DNA from: Bacilli bacterium
Lineage (GTDB): Bacteria > Bacillota_I > Bacilli_A > RF39 > UBA660
DNA length: 64,000 nt
NCBI GenBank assembly: GCA_017542065.1
Contig: JAFXXX010000019.1
Span: forward strand, 59,705 to 123,704
Direction: 5' to 3'
Shown here in pieces: positions 35,517 to 42,707 of the stretch (positions are counted from its first letter, which is position 1; every line of letters starts with the position of its first letter). The notes under the pieces are model-generated. The model worked only from the letters and a program-made list of their open reading frames with translations. It made no database searches and was not told the DNA's origin. The position numbers and the translations under genes were made by a program.

Positions 35517-37337
35517 TTATTTTTGCTCATTTCTTATTCTTGCATCATATTTTTTTCTTTCTTCAGTATTAAGAATCTTCTTTCTTAATCTAAAGTTAAT
35601 TGGTGTAATTTCTACAAGTTCATCACCATTAATATATTCAAGTGCAGCTTCTAAAGATAATTGTTTTGGTCTTTTTAAAACTACAGTATGATCTTTACCT
35701 GCACTTCTTGTATTAGTTAAGTTCTTACCTTTAACAACGTTAACAGCAAGGTCAGCATCTTTATTAGCTTCTCCTACTATCATACCTTCATATACTTCTG
35801 CACCAGGTTCTACAAACATTACACCTCTATCTTCTAATTGACCTAAAGCGTAAGCTGTACAAGCACCATTTTCCATAGAAACAAGAACACCAAGTTTTCT
35901 TTCTCCAACTTGTGCTACTTGTTTTGGTAAATATTCTTTAAATGTATGATTTAAGATACCAAATCCCTTAGTCATTGTCATGAAGTCTGTTGTGAAACCA
36001 ATTAAACCTCTAGATGGAACAGTATAAGTTAACTTAACTACTCCAGGTAAATTAGTCATAGTTTCCATTGTACCACCTCTAAGGCCTAAAGCTTCAATAA
36101 TAGATCCTACAGTATCTTCTGGACATTCAATAGAAACATCTTCATATGGTTCACATTCAACACCATCAATTTCTTTAATAATAACTTCAGGTTTAGATAC
36201 TTCAAGTTCGAAACCTTCTCTTCTCATATTTTCAATTAAAATAGATAAGTGAAGTTCTCCTCTACCTGAAACAATAAAACTTTCTTGATCGTTATCTCTA
36301 ATTTTTAGTGAAACATCAGATTCTGCTTGTTTATATAATCTTTCTCTAATTTTAGTAGCAGTTACAAATTTACCTTCTTTACCTACAAATGGTGATGAAT
36401 TAACACCAAATGTCATTTGTAAAGTTGGTTCATCTATTCTAAGTTTTGGAAGAGCCTCTTCATGACCTTCAGCACATATAGTTTCTCCAACTTCTATGTC
36501 AGCAAGTCCTGCAATAGCAATAACATCACCAGCATGAGCTTCTTCAACTTCTAATCTTTTTAATCCATAATAACTAAATAGTTTTTGAATTCTAAATTTC
36601 TTAATAGAACCATCTAGTCTTACACAAGAAACCATTTCATTTACTTTAACAGATCCTCTATTAATAGTACCAATACCAATTCTTCCTACATAGTCATTAT
36701 AATCTAATAAAGCAGGTTGGAATCTAAATGCACCTTCTTCTACTTTTGGAGCAGGTACTTCATTAACTATTAAATCAAATATTGGATCCATAGTTTTTTC
36801 TTGAGTAGATAAATCTGGACTTAATGAACAAGTTCCATTAATAGCAGATGCATAAACTGTTTTGAAATCTAGTTGTTCATCAGATGCACCTAATTCCATT
36901 AATAATTCTAAAACTTCTTCTACTACTTCGTTAATTCTTGAAGTTGGTTTATCAACTTTATTTACTACTACTATAATTTTTAAATTAGCTTCTAATGCTT
37001 TTTTAAGTACGAATTTTGTTTGAGGCATAACACCTTCATAAGCATCAACAAGTAATATAGCACCATCAACCATGTGCATAATTCTTTCAACTTCTCCACC
37101 AAAATCAGCATGTCCAGGAGTATCTAAGATATTAATTTTATAATCTTTATACTTAACAGAAGTAGGTTTAGCTAAAATAGTAATACCTCTTTCTCTTTCA
37201 ATATCATTAGAATCCATTGCTCTTTCAGCTACTACTTCATTTTCCCTAAATGTATTAGATTCTTTTAATAATCCGTCTACTAAAGTAGTTTTACCATGGT
37301 CTACGTGTGCAATAATTGCTACGTTTCTAATTTCCAT
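35517..37337 (-). CDS. typA: translational GTPase TypA/BipA
   Basis: RNVAIIAHVDHGKTTLVD, DTPGHADFGGEVER and GRGELHLSILIENMRREG motifs. Confidence 0.98.
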   Translation of the reverse strand: MEIRNVAIIAHVDHGKTTLVDGLLKESNTFRENEVVAERAMDSNDIERERGITILAKPTSVKYKDYKINILDTPGHADFGGEVERIMHMVDGAILLVDAYEGVMPQTKFVLKKALEANLKIIVVVNKVDKPTSRINEVVEEVLELLMELGASDEQLDFKTVYASAINGTCSLSPDLSTQEKTMDPIFDLIVNEVPAPKVEEGAFRFQPALLDYNDYVGRIGIGTINRGSVKVNEMVSCVRLDGSIKKFRIQKLFSYYGLKRLEVEEAHAGDVIAIAGLADIEVGETICAEGHEEALPKLRIDEPTLQMTFGVNSSPFVGKEGKFVTATKIRERLYKQAESDVSLKIRDNDQESFIVSGRGELHLSILIENMRREGFELEVSKPEVIIKEIDGVECEPYEDVSIECPEDTVGSIIEALGLRGGTMETMTNLPGVVKLTYTVPSRGLIGFTTDFMTMTKGFGILNHTFKEYLPKQVAQVGERKLGVLVSMENGACTAYALGQLEDRGVMFVEPGAEVYEGMIVGEANKDADLAVNVVKGKNLTNTRSAGKDHTVVLKRPKQLSLEAALEYINGDELVEITPINFRLRKKILNTEERKKYDARIRNEQK

Positions 37338-37418
37338 ATACTCATCCCCTTTTTGGAAAGCCTAAGATATTATAACACTTATTTAAGATTTTGCAAATAA
37401 AAAAAGAAGTAAAACTTC

Positions 37419-37937
37419 TTATTTTTTAAATATATTTATTACTTTTCCAACTCTTTCTGTTATTGCTTTAGAATTCTTAATAGCAATAGTTTTACCAAGT
37501 GCTTTAGTAGTAATAGTTAAAGATGCAATTATTGATGTAACTAGTAACACTAATAATGATGGATTAATCTTTACTTTATCTACTAAAGAAGCTGCTACCA
37601 TCATACCAGCAGAACCACTAACTACTCCGCATACATCACCTACTACGTCATTACAAATAGAGGCTAATTTATCAGAGTTTTTAATAAGTTTAACTGAATG
37701 ACTAGATCCCTTTATTTTCTTTGATGCCATTGAATTAAATGGTGTCTCATCTTGTGCTGTAATAGCTACTCCAATCATATCAAATATCATACTAATAAAT
37801 ATAAATAATACTATTATTAATATACCAAAATATACATTTATTTTAGGTATAACTCCTTCTGATAATAAACTCATTCCCATTGATAATGCAAATGATAAAA
37901 ATAGAACTGTTATTAACCAACCAAATTGTTTTTTCAT
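37419..37937 (-). CDS. oapA: OLE-associated protein A (OapA; CNNM/DUF21-related membrane protein)
   Basis: About 172 aa with 4 hydrophobic helices; FDMIGVA...PFNSMASKK.G and ICNDVVGDVCGVVSG (DxxGD) motifs; OLE RNA about 1 kb upstream on the same strand. Confidence 0.88.
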   Translation of the reverse strand: MKKQFGWLITVLFLSFALSMGMSLLSEGVIPKINVYFGILIIVLFIFISMIFDMIGVAITAQDETPFNSMASKKIKGSSHSVKLIKNSDKLASICNDVVGDVCGVVSGSAGMMVAASLVDKVKINPSLLVLLVTSIIASLTITTKALGKTIAIKNSKAITERVGKVINIFKK

Positions 37938-37982
37938 ATTTCTCACCTAATATAATTATATCATAAAAAAATAAGAATAATA

Positions 37983-38813
37983 TTAATTCTTATTTTTAAG
38001 TGTATATGCATAATCAGCAATACTTATAGGAGCATTATTAGTTAAATTCTCATTACCTATAGGAAATTGATTCTTTTTGTTTGCTTCATTTTCAACATAA
38101 CTTAAGAAAGTCCCACTAAACATATTAAATCCTTTAGGATAATATCTAGATTTCTTTTCTAAACTAGTAAACGAAAAATAGTTTAATCCTAAGTAATCCA
38201 TAATTTTTCTACTATTAGTATAATATGATACATTATGTCCTTCTCTTGGATATTTAGGCATTGAATCAGTATATCCAACTAAATTATTTGTAGTTTTAAA
38301 ATAAAAAATAGGATTAGTATGGTTTACTTTGCCTGTATCAATAGGATAATCTAGATTAGGATCTAATATAGAATAAGCTCCATTAATACCATATTTTCTA
38401 AGACATTTATCTATATTTTCTTCGCCGTTTTTAAGTAAATAATAAAGTAATAAAATAGGATTATTTCTTACTTTATTTCTATCTTCCTCATTATCAATTA
38501 CATCTTCAATTATTCCGGATTTTAACACTCTTTGTTCATCTAGAATACCAGCTAAATAGTATTCTTTTATTTGCATACCATTTTCATCTTCATAATATAC
38601 ATAACTTGGAAAGTTTTTATCTTCATTTGAAACTATTTGACCCATAAAGAAACTTTGTGTTCCTGTAGTTAAATCATCTTTTCTATATTTCATTTCATGG
38701 ATTTCTACAACTCTTACAATTTCTTTTTCAGAGTCTATAACCATTCTTTGAAGAGCATTAATTAGTTTATCACTATCATAATTACCTTCTGCTACTAATA
38801 ATATTTTGTTCAT
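37983..38813 (-). CDS. hypothetical protein (ORFan) inserted between ole and oapA
   Basis: ATG at 38813 follows GAGGTG; own TG.TATAAT promoter and own terminator (about 37965-37997). Confidence 0.75.
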   Translation of the reverse strand: MNKILLVAEGNYDSDKLINALQRMVIDSEKEIVRVVEIHEMKYRKDDLTTGTQSFFMGQIVSNEDKNFPSYVYYEDENGMQIKEYYLAGILDEQRVLKSGIIEDVIDNEEDRNKVRNNPILLLYYLLKNGEENIDKCLRKYGINGAYSILDPNLDYPIDTGKVNHTNPIFYFKTTNNLVGYTDSMPKYPREGHNVSYYTNSRKIMDYLGLNYFSFTSLEKKSRYYPKGFNMFSGTFLSYVENEANKKNQFPIGNENLTNNAPISIADYAYTLKNKN

Positions 38814-38867
38814 AGTACACCTCTTAAACAATTGAAAACTATTATATCATACTAAATATTTAAAAAC

Positions 38868-38900
38868 AAAAAAAATCATCTTTTATAAGATGATTTATTT
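38868..38900 (-). terminator. rho-independent terminator after the OLE RNA
   Basis: 10-bp stem AAATCATCTT/AAGATGATTT with a U-tract on the minus strand. Confidence 0.75.
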
Positions 38901-38910
38901 CATAAAAAAA

Positions 38911-39424
38911 TATGACTGGTACTATCACAATTAACTTTGCGCCATAGGTCAAGTAGAAGTTTCTCATATTTAAACCTTTCGTTACCAAAAGGCGGTTCCC
39001 CTTTACTTAAATATATATACCGTCACCTAAGTATACGACTTGATTACCACTTAGTACGCACTGCAAACTCATGATAGTATACAGCCTAGGAGATTTCCTC
39101 CCTGATATTATTCTATTATTAGTCTTTTTTGCAAATACAGTTTCATATAAGATATAAATACCTAAATACTTTGGCCATTAATATATAGATATTCCTATAA
39201 TTCCCATATATTCACTCAAGATTAGCAATTATTATTTTGTCATGTGTTAAATGGGTAGAGTCTTATATGCCATTATAAGATTCCCATAAAACTACTTTTA
39301 TATAAACACCCAGCTTTGGGCAAGCCAAGCAATCTATACAAAGTGTACTTGTATGCTATTTAACGAATTTTTAGGCTCGTCTTCATAATAGATGTATCAA
39401 CTAGGATACTGCACCCTTCATACG
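38911..39424 (-). ncRNA. ole: OLE RNA (ornate large extremophilic RNA), compact variant of about 510 nt
   Basis: The minus strand carries OLE hallmark segments in order: GUGCAGUAUCCUAGU, UGAAGACGAGCCUAAAAAUUCGUU, AAUGGCAU, CUUGAGUGA, UUUGCAAAA, GAGGAAAUCUCCUAGGCUG, ACUAAGUGGUAAUC, AAAGGGGAACCGCC and CUACUUGACCUAUGGCGCAA. The 5' GUAUGA pairs with the 3' UCAUAU. The region has no ORF and oapA lies downstream. Confidence 0.92.
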
Positions 39425-39430
39425 AGAAAA

Positions 39431-39459
39431 ATTATAGCATATTTACGTAAAATAGTCAA
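39431..39459 (-). promoter_or_regulatory. sigma-A promoter of ole
   Basis: TTGACT, 17-bp spacer ending in TGC, TATAAT on the minus strand. Confidence 0.8.
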
Positions 39460-39496
39460 ATTTTTGGTTGACTTTTGAAATCATCAAAAAACAATA

Positions 39497-39715
39497 CTAT
39501 TTAGTATTGTTCATTGCCTTCATAACTTGATTAACTTGTTTTTGAGAAGGTGTTCTTCCCATTTGAATCATCATAGTTCTAATCATTTGTTCATTTATTG
39601 GTGGATTCTTCTTTAAATATTTTTCCATAAATATTTTAGCAACAAAGAATCCAATTATTAAACCTGGTACTAATCCAATAGCAACCATTAATATATCATG
39701 CCACATATTACTCAT
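39497..39715 (-). CDS. yneF: YneF (UPF0154) small membrane protein
   Basis: [34 protein letters not shown] motif; downstream of tkt as in Bacillus. Confidence 0.93.
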
Positions 39716-39778
39716 ATTATTTTCCTCCTTAAATACATATATATTATATATTATTTTTATTTAAAATAAAAGAACTTA

Positions 39779-41755
39779 TTACAATAAGTTCTCTATTCTA
39801 CTAATTAATTTATCTATATTTATATTCATATAGTTAAGAACATCATCTTTAGAACCAGAAGCTCCAAATGAATCTACAGTTAATAAATAATCTGAACTAG
39901 GAACAAATTTTTCCCATCCAAATGAAGAACCAAATTCTAATATAAATATAGGTTTACCCTTTGGAATAATACTCTCTTTATATTCATCACTTTGAATATT
40001 ATATAATTCCATACAAGGCATACTAATAATTCTTGCATCTATATTTTTATCTTGTAATAGTTTTACTTGCATTGATTTAGCAAGTTGAACTTCAGCTCCA
40101 GTAGCTATAATAACAGCATCTACTCTTTCTTTTTCCTCTCCTACTATATAAGCACCTTTAGAAACGCTTTCTCCTTTAGTTCCTTGTTCTGCTTTAACTT
40201 CAGTTTTAGGAAGTGAAATAACACAAGGGATCTTATTACTTAGTATTACATTCCAAGTACCAATAATTTCTTTAATATCAGCAGGTCTAAATACATATAA
40301 ATTAGGTATAGATCTAAGATCTGATAATTGCTCTACTGGTTGATGAGCAGGTCCATCAAATGAATTAGTAACAGAATCATGAGTAAATATATATGTTACT
40401 GGTAAATTCATTAATGCAGTTTGTCTAATAGATTCTCTCATACTATCACTATAAACAAGTAATGTTGATCCAAATGATCTAAATCCAGATACTGCAAGAC
40501 CATTTAAACAAGCTCCCATAAAGTTATCTCTAACTCCGAATGGAATATTCTTTCCAGTATATTTCTTATATCCTATTTCTTCTGAACCATCAATATATAC
40601 TCTAGTAGTATTAGCTAAGTCAGAACTACCTCCAATAAAGTTATAAACACTATTACCAATAAGGTTCATAATTCTATGATTACTTTCTCTCATAGATTCT
40701 TTATTATTATAATCTATTGGAATCTCTGCTCTGTTTAAATCTACATTTACTAAGTTTTGATTAATATTATTTAATTCAAGTAATTGTTGTGGTGTTAAAA
40801 CTTGTTTGTATTCATTAACTAGTTTTTCCCATTCTTGATAAATCTTAATAGATCTACCAATTACAGTATCTCTCATGTAACTAGCAGGTTCTTTTAATAT
40901 AGTAAATGGTATTGTACCAACTCCTGCTTTTTGTTTAAATTGATCTAAATCATTTTTTTCAAGTAATTGTGAATGAGTAGTTAATTTACCTTGATTAAGT
41001 AATCCTTCACCAATTATAGTTTTAACTTGAATAATTGTTGGAGCTTTAGCTCTTTTAGCTTTTTCGATAGCTTTATTAATTTCATTAGATGAATTACCAT
41101 TCTTAACAAATATAGTATTCCATCCCATAGATGAGAATCTAGATAAAACACTTTCACTAAATGTTCTTTTTATTTCTCCATCTGATGATACATCATTTGA
41201 ATCATATAAAACTATTAAATTATCTAATCCCATAGTTCCAGCAAAAGATGCAGCTTCATATGAAATACCTTTCATTAAATCTCCATCAGATACTAAAACG
41301 TACACTTTATAATCTATTATTTTATTTAATTTAGATTTACTCTTATCATTATATAATGCTTCATATTTCTTTTCAGCAAGAGCCATACCTACAGCTGTCG
41401 CAAATCCTTGACCTAATGGCCCTGTACTTAAATCTACTCCAAGAGTATTAATATTAGGATAAGCAGGTGTCTTAGAACCTAATTGTTTATAGTTTTTAAG
41501 GTCATCTATCATTAATGGATATCCAGTTAAAAACATTGTTGAATATAATAATGCTGATGCATGTGATGCACTTAAAACAAATCTATCTCTATTTATCCAA
41601 TCTGGTATAGAAGGATTAACTCTTAAATGTTTGGTAAAAAGTGTATATAAAATTGGTGCCGCAGAAAAACTTATACCATAATTTCCTTCTGTTCCAGAAT
41701 TTTGAATCATATCTAAAGCTAAATTCTTTATAACATTAATTGCCTTTTGATCCAT
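39779..41755 (-). CDS. tkt: transketolase family protein with a degenerate active site
   Basis: WINRDRFVLS..H, STGPLGQG, THDS...DGPAHQPVEQL and RPAD motifs; lexA-yneA-tkt-yneF synteny. Confidence 0.9.
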   Translation of the reverse strand: MDQKAINVIKNLALDMIQNSGTEGNYGISFSAAPILYTLFTKHLRVNPSIPDWINRDRFVLSASHASALLYSTMFLTGYPLMIDDLKNYKQLGSKTPAYPNINTLGVDLSTGPLGQGFATAVGMALAEKKYEALYNDKSKSKLNKIIDYKVYVLVSDGDLMKGISYEAASFAGTMGLDNLIVLYDSNDVSSDGEIKRTFSESVLSRFSSMGWNTIFVKNGNSSNEINKAIEKAKRAKAPTIIQVKTIIGEGLLNQGKLTTHSQLLEKNDLDQFKQKAGVGTIPFTILKEPASYMRDTVIGRSIKIYQEWEKLVNEYKQVLTPQQLLELNNINQNLVNVDLNRAEIPIDYNNKESMRESNHRIMNLIGNSVYNFIGGSSDLANTTRVYIDGSEEIGYKKYTGKNIPFGVRDNFMGACLNGLAVSGFRSFGSTLLVYSDSMRESIRQTALMNLPVTYIFTHDSVTNSFDGPAHQPVEQLSDLRSIPNLYVFRPADIKEIIGTWNVILSNKIPCVISLPKTEVKAEQGTKGESVSKGAYIVGEEKERVDAVIIATGAEVQLAKSMQVKLLQDKNIDARIISMPCMELYNIQSDEYKESIIPKGKPIFILEFGSSFGWEKFVPSSDYLLTVDSFGASGSKDDVLNYMNINIDKLISRIENLL

Positions 41756-41819
41756 AACTATCACCCTAGCCCTTTATTCTTTATTAATTATATCAAACAT
41801 TTAATAAAAAATAAATAGA

Positions 41820-41975
41820 TTATTCATAAACATAGTATTCTTCATAATTATAATCTTCAATTACTGTATCCTCTACTCCGTATACATTAATTAATCTAAT
41901 AGCTAGTGAATATAATAAAACAACACATATAACAAATGTTACTCCTACTTTTAAAATTCCTTTTAATTTTTTCAT
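41820..41975 (-). CDS. 51-aa single-TM peptide at the yneA/sosA position (putative SOS cell-division inhibitor)
   Basis: MKKLKGILKVGVTFVICVVLLYSLAIRLINVYGVEDTVIEDYNYEEYYVYE; GAGGTGA SD; divergent from lexA; absent from the ORF track. Confidence 0.75.
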   Translation of the reverse strand: MKKLKGILKVGVTFVICVVLLYSLAIRLINVYGVEDTVIEDYNYEEYYVYE

Positions 41976-41996
41976 ATATCTTCACCTCTTGTCTTC

Positions 41997-42073
41997 ATTG
42001 TATTACGAACAAGTGTATGTGTCAATATGCTTTCAAACAAATGTTTGACATTTTACATTTTTTGTGATAATAT
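41997..42073. promoter_or_regulatory. divergent promoters with two LexA (Cheo) boxes
   Basis: CGAACAAGTGTATG (42006-19) lies in the spacer of the minus-strand TTGACA-17-TACAAT promoter; CAAACAAATGTTTG (42034-47) overlaps the -35 TTGACA of lexA. Confidence 0.8.
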
Positions 42074-42095
42074 TATTTTAGTAAAGGAGAATAAT

Positions 42096-42707
42096 ATGGA
42101 GAAACTAACTGTAAAACAAAATCTAGTTTTAGATTATTTAAAAAGAAGTATAGCTAAAAATGGTTATCCACCTACTGTTAGAGAAATTGGTAAAGCACTA
42201 GATTTATCTAGTCCTGCAACTGTTCAAGCTCATTTAAATACTTTAGAAACTAAGGGATATATAAAAAGAGGAGATTCAAAGAATAGAGCTATTGAGTTAT
42301 TAGTTCCAAATGATTATGCTGAATCTGATACAATAGACGTTCCTCTACTTGGTAAAGTAACTGCAGGAAATCCAATTGAAGCTATTGAAATGCCAGATGA
42401 ATTCTTTACATTACCAGCTTCCATGATACCTACTAAAAAAGAAGTATTTACACTTAGAGTATCTGGAACTTCAATGATCAATGCTGGTGTTCATGATGGA
42501 GATATAGTTATAGTTCAAAGACAAGCTACTGCTAATAACGGAGATATGGTAGTTGCTATGACAGAAGATAATGAAGTTACACTTAAAACATTTTATAAAG
42601 AAGACGGATATTTTAGATTACAACCTGAAAATGATACTATGGCCCCTATTATACTTGATAAAGTATATATAGTTGGTAAAGCAATAGGATTATATAGAAA
42701 ATTCTAA
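42096..42707 (+). CDS. lexA: SOS repressor LexA
   Basis: GYPPTVREIG, VTAGNP cleavage site, VSGTSM, VTLK and RLQPEN motifs; AAGGAG SD before ATG at 42096. Confidence 0.97.
   Translation: MEKLTVKQNLVLDYLKRSIAKNGYPPTVREIGKALDLSSPATVQAHLNTLETKGYIKRGDSKNRAIELLVPNDYAESDTIDVPLLGKVTAGNPIEAIEMPDEFFTLPASMIPTKKEVFTLRVSGTSMINAGVHDGDIVIVQRQATANNGDMVVAMTEDNEVTLKTFYKEDGYFRLQPENDTMAPIILDKVYIVGKAIGLYRKF

Follow-up and report, generated by a model that had tools for sequence, protein, structure and literature searches.

Our results support the conclusion that the window, by which we mean the whole 64,000-nucleotide stretch analyzed here (positions 59705-123704 of contig 5 in the draft genome that we call G000), carries a functional ole gene of the "variant 2" type, which lacks helices P7 and P8, in a gut member of the Bacilli whose genome is about 1 Mb in size. 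We place the probability of this reading at roughly 90%. Few conserved bacterial RNAs without a known biochemical function are as large as OLE, and natural deletions show which of its parts that function can spare. The compact RNA described here belongs to a variant class that has been published, and both the finding and its proposed meaning are already in print. What goes beyond the literature accessible to us is confined to a matched set of compact and full-length OLE RNAs within one genus and to a pair of ultra-short forms of about 378 nt.

The identity of the RNA, as named in the original prediction, was confirmed by an Rfam scan of the whole window, in which the OLE family (RF01071) gave a complete, untruncated match to model positions 1-616 that scored 244.2 bits (gathering score, 50; E = 8.6e-68); the match is highly significant, and helices of the model are missing from it. 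No other OLE match occurs in the assembly (902,559 bases in 23 contigs, 81% complete). The interval first proposed for the gene, 38911-39459, is bounded by the 3' strand of P1 and the -35 hexamer and is therefore correct, with the proviso that it includes the promoter. By the Rfam bounds the RNA is 534 nt long. Its shortfall had been estimated at about 90 nt, which proved too large: the RNA falls short of the 616-position Rfam model by 82 nt and of its closest full-length relatives, four RNAs of 585-598 nt, by 51-64 nt. The accompanying description of the gene as AU-eroded is only mildly true, the G+C content being 32.0% compared with 33.7-36.5% in the same four relatives and 26.7% in the genome. 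The stretch was rightly called free of open reading frames, since none of at least 60 aa lies within it and only two, of 42 and 45 aa, overlap it.

Table 1. Features of the ole locus and its surroundings, in window coordinates
Feature	Position	Strand	Remarks
T-box leader	2670-2883	plus	RF00230; 108.4 bits, cut-off 93
typA/bipA (TypA/BipA)	35517-37337	minus	
oapA	37419-37946	minus	175-aa CNNM-like membrane protein; PF01595
Orphan gene	37983-38813	minus	276 aa, counting from the ATG that follows AAGAGGTG; flanked by the ole terminator and oapA
Extended -10	38841-38849		precedes the orphan gene
Terminator-like hairpin and U run	38861-38896	minus	10-bp A/U-rich stem at 38873-38896
OLE RNA, Rfam bounds	38900-39433	minus	P1-bounded structured core about 38911-39423
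3' domain, P12-P15	38922-39077	minus	includes ACUAAGUGGUAAUC; sub-helix labels are our own assignment
P13 hairpin	39015-39036	minus	GUGA tetraloop
P10 hairpin	39090-39100	minus	GGAAA loop; P12 directly after
P9	39123-39221	minus	full length; palindromic loop GGCC at 39173-39176 (L9.3, kissing-loop bridge B3)
Linker in place of J6/7, P7 and P8	39229-39243	minus	A-rich, 15 nt
P6	39246-39292	minus	loop AAUGGCAU
P5	39297-39341	minus	loop GCCCA at 39317-39321
P4 hairpin	39362-39381	minus	loop CUAAAAAU (L4); L4 is A-A dimer bridge B1 in cryo-EM
P2, 5' strand	39401-39412	minus	includes CCUAG; partner 39081-39089
P1, 5' strand	39413-39419	minus	partner 38914-38920
Predicted ole promoter	39431-39459	minus	-35 TTGACT at 39454-39459, 17-nt spacer, TG-extended -10 TATAAT at 39431-39436
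yneF (YneF/UPF0154)	39497-39715	minus	
tkt (transketolase)	39779-41764	minus	
lexA, tkt and yneF, upstream of ole	39497-42707		lexA on the plus strand

Helix names follow the OapC paper, the cryo-EM paper (PMC12286853), the OapB paper (PMC7936274) and Breaker 2025 (PMC12265935), in the sections of these papers that were accessible to us and on which we draw throughout. Both the Rfam alignment and an alignment of 15 OLE RNAs from the family indicate that P1-P6, P9-P10 and P12-P15 are retained. The paired ends that had been recognized at the outset correspond to P1, in which alignment columns 15-21 pair with 616-622 and compensatory changes occur at three of five pairs; helices 1-3, including P1 and P2, are paired in 88-100% of cells across the 15 sequences. 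Relative to the full P1-P15 set at about 600 nt, the 534-nt RNA lacks J6/7, P7, P8 and P11, the last of which is missing from every one of the 15 aligned family RNAs, even those of full length. The stretch between ACCC and CUUGAGUGA had been described as collapsed, and the Rfam alignment bears this out: a gap of 44 + 36 model positions, about 80 in all, is filled by 9 + 5 nt, or 14 nt. In the 15-sequence alignment, columns 212-294 are empty in the window's OLE, and only 56 nt separate L6 from the beginning of P9, compared with 111-140 nt in nine full-length relatives. The RNA would be expected to fold into the OLE architecture of P1-P6, P9, P10 and P12-P15, with the 15-nt linker standing for J6/7-P7-P8.

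The loss leaves the loops that make the dimer bridges in the cryo-EM structure (L4, L5, L6 and L9.3; PMC12286853) all in place. L7, which Kretsch et al. (PMC12286853) count as part of bridge B2, is lost; according to Breaker 2025 (PMC12265935), neither P7 nor P8 is a dimer contact. By analogy with the cryo-EM dimers, the compact RNA would be expected to form dimers with contacts at L4, at L5/L6 and at the GGCC loop in P9. In H. halodurans, OapB binds at the P13 hairpin (PMC7936274), which is present here with its GUGA tetraloop. The motifs UGAAAC in J4a/5 and GGAGAC in J6/7 are invariant in the nine full-length relatives, whereas they are altered in the three compact sequences. In the cryo-EM structure these joining regions build a k-turn (PMC12286853), which has probably been lost or rebuilt in the compact lineage, and with both motifs altered part of domain 1 may fold differently.

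The predicted promoter matches the consensus at 11 of 12 positions, has a TG ahead of its -10 element and is the top site in 37300-39800, in agreement with the TTGACT-17-TATAAT element reported from the start. Because promoter-like sites as a class are not enriched in this interval (17, against 20.1 +/- 4.2 in shuffles), support for the promoter consists of its rank as top site and its conservation in relatives. The arrangement TTGAC(T/A)-17-TA(T/A)(A/T)AT, at an equal distance to the conserved GGUGCA, is found in nine of the ten related loci with a complete 5' flank; the exception has an extended -10 only, and an eleventh locus ends at a contig edge and is hence outside the count of ten. A hairpin and U run lie at the equivalent place beyond the 3' end in 9 of 11 related loci. 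With just two G-C pairs in its stem, the ole terminator escaped the consensus scan. A site that the terminator scan did return, 39331-39307, was rejected as a terminator, being the P5 hairpin. A sigma-70-type promoter at this position would start the RNA near 39424, and the A/U-rich hairpin with its U run would end it, so that ole in this lineage is predicted to be its own transcription unit, from about 39424 to about 38865. The OLE RNA of H. halodurans, in contrast, is cut out of a long operon transcript.

The window's RNA looks to be under selection rather than decaying. RNAalifold, applied to the 15 family OLE RNAs, gave 101 consensus pairs, and in 66 of these both partners have changed. 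With the consensus structure derived from the same alignment as was used for the pair counts, standard pairs fill 95.5% of cells, against 38-48% when the partners are slid by 1-3 columns, double-change pairs number 66 against 18-22 when slid, and none of 500 shuffles reached the observed pairing values. The window's OLE forms 97 of the 101 consensus pairs as standard pairs. The other four pairs are non-standard and are confined to the lower stem of P5, which is A/U-rich and re-registered relative to full-length relatives, and a one-base register shift restores pairing there (both the register and the shift were read by eye). Relative to the full-length sister group, five pairs have changed on both sides and eight on one side with pairing kept. 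Folded as a single sequence, the RNA is not clearly better than its shuffles (z = -1.75; 6 of 100 fold as well). OLE also exceeds every compared part of its locus in conservation, as judged by identity to two other genomes with the compact form: 93.8% to G010 (tkt, 80.4%; yneF, 87.7%; oapA, 87.4%; typA, 91.0%; orphan gene absent) and 98.1% to G006 (tkt, 89.8%; yneF, 95.3%; oapA, 94.3%; orphan gene, 88.0%).

These figures bear directly on the alternative that ole is a non-functional pseudogene, a relic shedding pieces in a shrinking genome. Such decay would fit a reduced genome (0.9 Mb at 81% completeness) from which an OLE module has been deleted, in which the lower stem of P5 exceeds that of relatives in A/U content and the k-turn motifs are altered, and it would fit an order in which loss of OLE does occur, as seen in the 55 of 151 genomes that lack it; yet across three species no DNA of the locus is better conserved than that of OLE, and the RNA keeps nearly all its consensus pairs and has acquired compensatory changes since its split from the full-length sisters. 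Neither the promoter nor the terminator has been disrupted, and both are conserved; oapA is likewise undamaged and retains DxxxD; and RNA-library contigs fall on OLE (see below). We regard decay as improbable on this evidence and favor a functional compact RNA.

On the minus strand, the gene order is transketolase, YneF, ole, the orphan gene, oapA and TypA/BipA. Upstream, the order lexA-tkt-yneF resembles the corresponding region of Bacillus subtilis, and the ole-oapA pair comes after yneF and not within an isoprenoid operon. The oapA gene is downstream of ole on the same strand with one inserted gene between them, and because both this orphan gene and a terminator intervene, co-expression of ole and oapA is not guaranteed. 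The 175-aa product matches PF01595 at 31.7 bits (cut-off, 28.4), carries the DxxxD motif as DVVGD at residues 100-104 and has four hydrophobic stretches, counted by eye; it thus has the features of an OapA, namely, a CNNM-like transmembrane domain, a DxxxD motif and a length of about 170-200 aa. An oapA homologue adjoins OLE in 14 of 15 loci. MpfA was not found, OapA being the sole CNNM match in G000, a provisional result for a genome that is 81% complete. By analogy with H. halodurans and the cryo-EM dimers, OapA, encoded two genes downstream, would be expected to bind OLE at the membrane, and a membrane location and a role in stress responses may be presumed for the RNA.

Of the other proteins, bS21 has been put forward as a partner of OLE, and its gene lies at a different site on the contig. 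The KOW model PF00467 finds nothing in G000, but this model is blind to OapB (YbzG, a KOW protein); in five other Bacilli genomes it finds frames of 105-120 and 181-184 aa, together with two weak matches, and by size alone we read the frames of these two lengths as L24 and NusG, respectively. A KOW-like regular expression run over our own set of open reading frames gave no candidates. The search of the genome for oapC, which had been suggested as a check, gave no PF01248 (L7Ae/YbxF) match in G000, provisionally, given its 81% completeness. Searches of 24 family genomes and of one genome from the sister family gave no L7Ae-family protein (OapC/YbxF/YlxQ), compared with 12 positive genomes out of 15 from other families in the class. 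UGAAAC and GGAGAC are still retained by nine full-length OLE RNAs from the genomes where none was found, so these nucleotides are conserved without the protein. We considered whether loss of P7-P8 is tied to loss of OapC and rejected the idea, as L7Ae was not found in any of the 24 family genomes, whatever the OLE form (full, compact or absent). OLE would appear to work here without an OapC (L7Ae-type) partner, which is seemingly missing from the whole order.

The orphan gene between ole and oapA matches nothing in Pfam, NCBIfam or the ESM Atlas and, among 15 loci, occurs in G000 and G006 only. In G010, an equivalent compact OLE is followed by oapA straight after the terminator. The extended -10 that precedes the orphan gene precedes oapA in relatives. 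Because the gene is found only in G000 and G006 and is absent from G010, it is best explained as a recent insertion and not as a conserved partner. One might still propose that the 276-aa protein, which belongs to no known family and whose gene is placed precisely between those for OLE and OapA, following the promoter found ahead of oapA in relatives, is a lineage-specific replacement for the role of P7-P8 (or of OapC). We consider this very improbable, even more so than decay of the RNA: G010 combines a compact OLE with an oapA directly downstream and lacks the gene, which argues against a required role, and between G000 and G006 the orphan gene is the least conserved gene of the locus. A compact OLE that functions with no such substitute is the reading we retain.

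Public sequencing runs provide a further view of the locus. At least 70% of the stretch's sampled words occur in 14 DNA runs, and 20-23% occur in six RNA runs. Contigs of 84-487 nt lying wholly inside OLE were obtained from all four RNA libraries (four studies) when contigs were aligned to 37400-41800 at 90% likeness. One contig from X20 (487 nt, 38916-39404, 25 differences) and one from X17 (180 nt, 39197-39377, two differences) span the deletion junction without extra letters. X19 gave contigs of 96 and 125 nt with no base differences and one 1-nt gap in the longer piece, and X15 gave contigs of 159 and 193 nt. The flanking genes appear in the RNA libraries only as short pieces of up to 63 nt at 90-95% likeness, which does not imply that these neighbors are silent. 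Contigs concentrate at 39033-39066, the universally conserved ACUAAGUGG region, which draws the OLE contigs of other organisms. These contigs lend weak support to expression of the compact form, as strand and ends are unseen, the runs were picked for OLE words and the source could be DNA. They also help to dispose of the notion that the deletion is an assembly or binning artefact of a full-length gene in a metagenome-assembled draft of 23 contigs, which is scarcely credible given an identical junction in three separately assembled genomes (G000, G006 and G010), the 14 DNA runs and two junction-spanning RNA-library contigs from different studies.

OLE was found in 96 of the 151 sampled genomes of the order, with scores of at least 334 bits in 71 and at most 287 bits in 25. 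When 35 RNAs (20 short forms plus the 15 loci, with 61 full-length matches left out) were classed by the spacings between anchor motifs, nine were full length (585-614 nt), four had only a short P9 through loss of its distal part (533-545 nt), seven lacked P7-P8 through loss of J6/7-P8, as in the window (514-541 nt), 13 lacked P7-P8 and had a short P9 (480-516 nt) and two were ultra-short (378-381 nt). Loss of J6/7-P8 and loss of distal P9 thus occur both separately and jointly. Distal P9, with its kissing-loop palindrome, has been lost independently of P7-P8 (for example, in L108-L111): four RNAs have P7-P8 with a P9 span of 36-43 nt, and thirteen are without both. Where P9 is long, the loop palindrome varies among GGCC, AGCT and GATC.

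A maximum-likelihood tree of the 35 OLE RNAs, built from 476 shared columns, unites G000, G006 and G010 in one clade (support 100/100), which is nested within a clade that also holds four full-length RNAs (100/100) and lies far from the 18-member clade containing most of the P7/P8-less forms. The tree requires at least two changes of P7-P8 state. Since the compact clade is nested among full-length RNAs, its deletion appears to be independent and fairly recent. One genus thereby provides a matched set, with compact RNAs in G000, G006 and G010, full-length RNAs in G013, G012, G001 and G007, and an oapA of its own in each; over shared columns, the window's OLE is 77-79% identical to its full-length congeners. 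Such congeners would offer a clean comparison of what P7-P8 contribute. A further member of the genus, G009 (L014), has its OLE in the other of the two deepest clades of the tree, where it groups with RNAs lacking P7-P8 and distal P9, whereas the other congeners fall with the full-length clade; the genus may be broad, or the ole-oapA pair may have been transferred.

The variant class to which this RNA belongs was described by Fernando and Breaker in 2024 (mSphere; PMC11332333), the only full text that we found to pair OLE RNA with RF39. In the sections of that paper available to us, all GTDB R214 genomes were searched for OLE, and variant 2 RNAs, which "entirely lack P7 and P8," are reported as common in RF39, uncultured gut microbes with reduced genomes that are largely without OapB and OapC; the authors suggest that such organisms are under pressure to shrink their OLE RNAs. 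Breaker 2025 (RNA; PMC12265935) adds that the non-contact status of P7 and P8 may explain their loss and makes the dispensability argument. The window's OLE likewise lacks P7 and P8 with conserved nucleotides elsewhere kept, and its host is likewise a reduced-genome gut bacterium in which OapC was not found. It scores 244 bits with the Rfam model, and the accessible text gives a variant 2 range of 235-310 bits with the authors' own model. Its lineage differs in that the loss of P7-P8 is separate from that in the family's large P7/P8-less clade. Variant 1, from the TANB77 clade (PMC11332333), is also a shortened OLE in a reduced gut lineage, but according to the same sections its P7, P8 and P9 are shorter and the OapB site at the tip of P13 is often missing, whereas the window's OLE lacks P7 and P8 entirely and has a full P9 and P13 GUGA loop.

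Set beside the full-length OLE RNAs of H. halodurans, C. acetobutylicum and C. botulinum, the window's RNA has the conserved segments in the same order and with the same sequence, and it shares P1-P6, P9, P10, P12-P15, the loops L4, L5 and L6, the palindromic L9.3, the GUGA tetraloop in P13 and a downstream oapA. It differs in lacking J6/7-P7-P8 and P11, in its altered J4a/5, in having its own predicted promoter and terminator and in a genome where OapC was not found. That this might be a natural minimal OLE revealing dispensable domains, as first put forward, is a reasonable reading, but the P7-P8 argument had already been published, so the window offers one well-documented example and no new idea.

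The shortest forms extend the comparison further. In G099 and G120, which represent two other genera of the same family, OLE is only 378 nt (L106:2001-2378; 139 bits) and 381 nt (L107:2001-2381; 134 bits), respectively. Model positions 74-277, from J4a/5 through P8, are reduced to 12-14 nt in these RNAs, and P5, P6, P7 and P8 are missing; P1-P4 with L4, P10 and the whole 3' domain are retained, and a short P9 is capped by the palindrome CUGAUCAG. A 172-aa oapA starts 5 nt downstream, and identity between G099 and G120 is 92% for the RNAs, compared with 85% for the oapA genes. We found no description of a 378-nt form in the accessible sections of the OLE variant literature, and it may be previously undescribed. 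Its scores fall far below the 235-bit cut-off of the 2024 paper, which may therefore have excluded this form, with the uncertainty that the model used there differs from that of Rfam.

In summary, the family may hold a graded deletion series of OLE RNAs, each paired with an oapA, in which the window's loss of P7-P8 is an independent and recent step, a view that we offer tentatively. If confirmed, the 378-nt forms would matter more than the window's own deletion, as they remove most of the structurally resolved domain, including the P5-P8 block with its k-turn, bS21 site and dimer bridge B2. If the short forms are functional, the indispensable core of OLE would be P1-P4, a self-complementary P9 loop and domain 2, and most of the domain 1 resolved by cryo-EM would be accessory.
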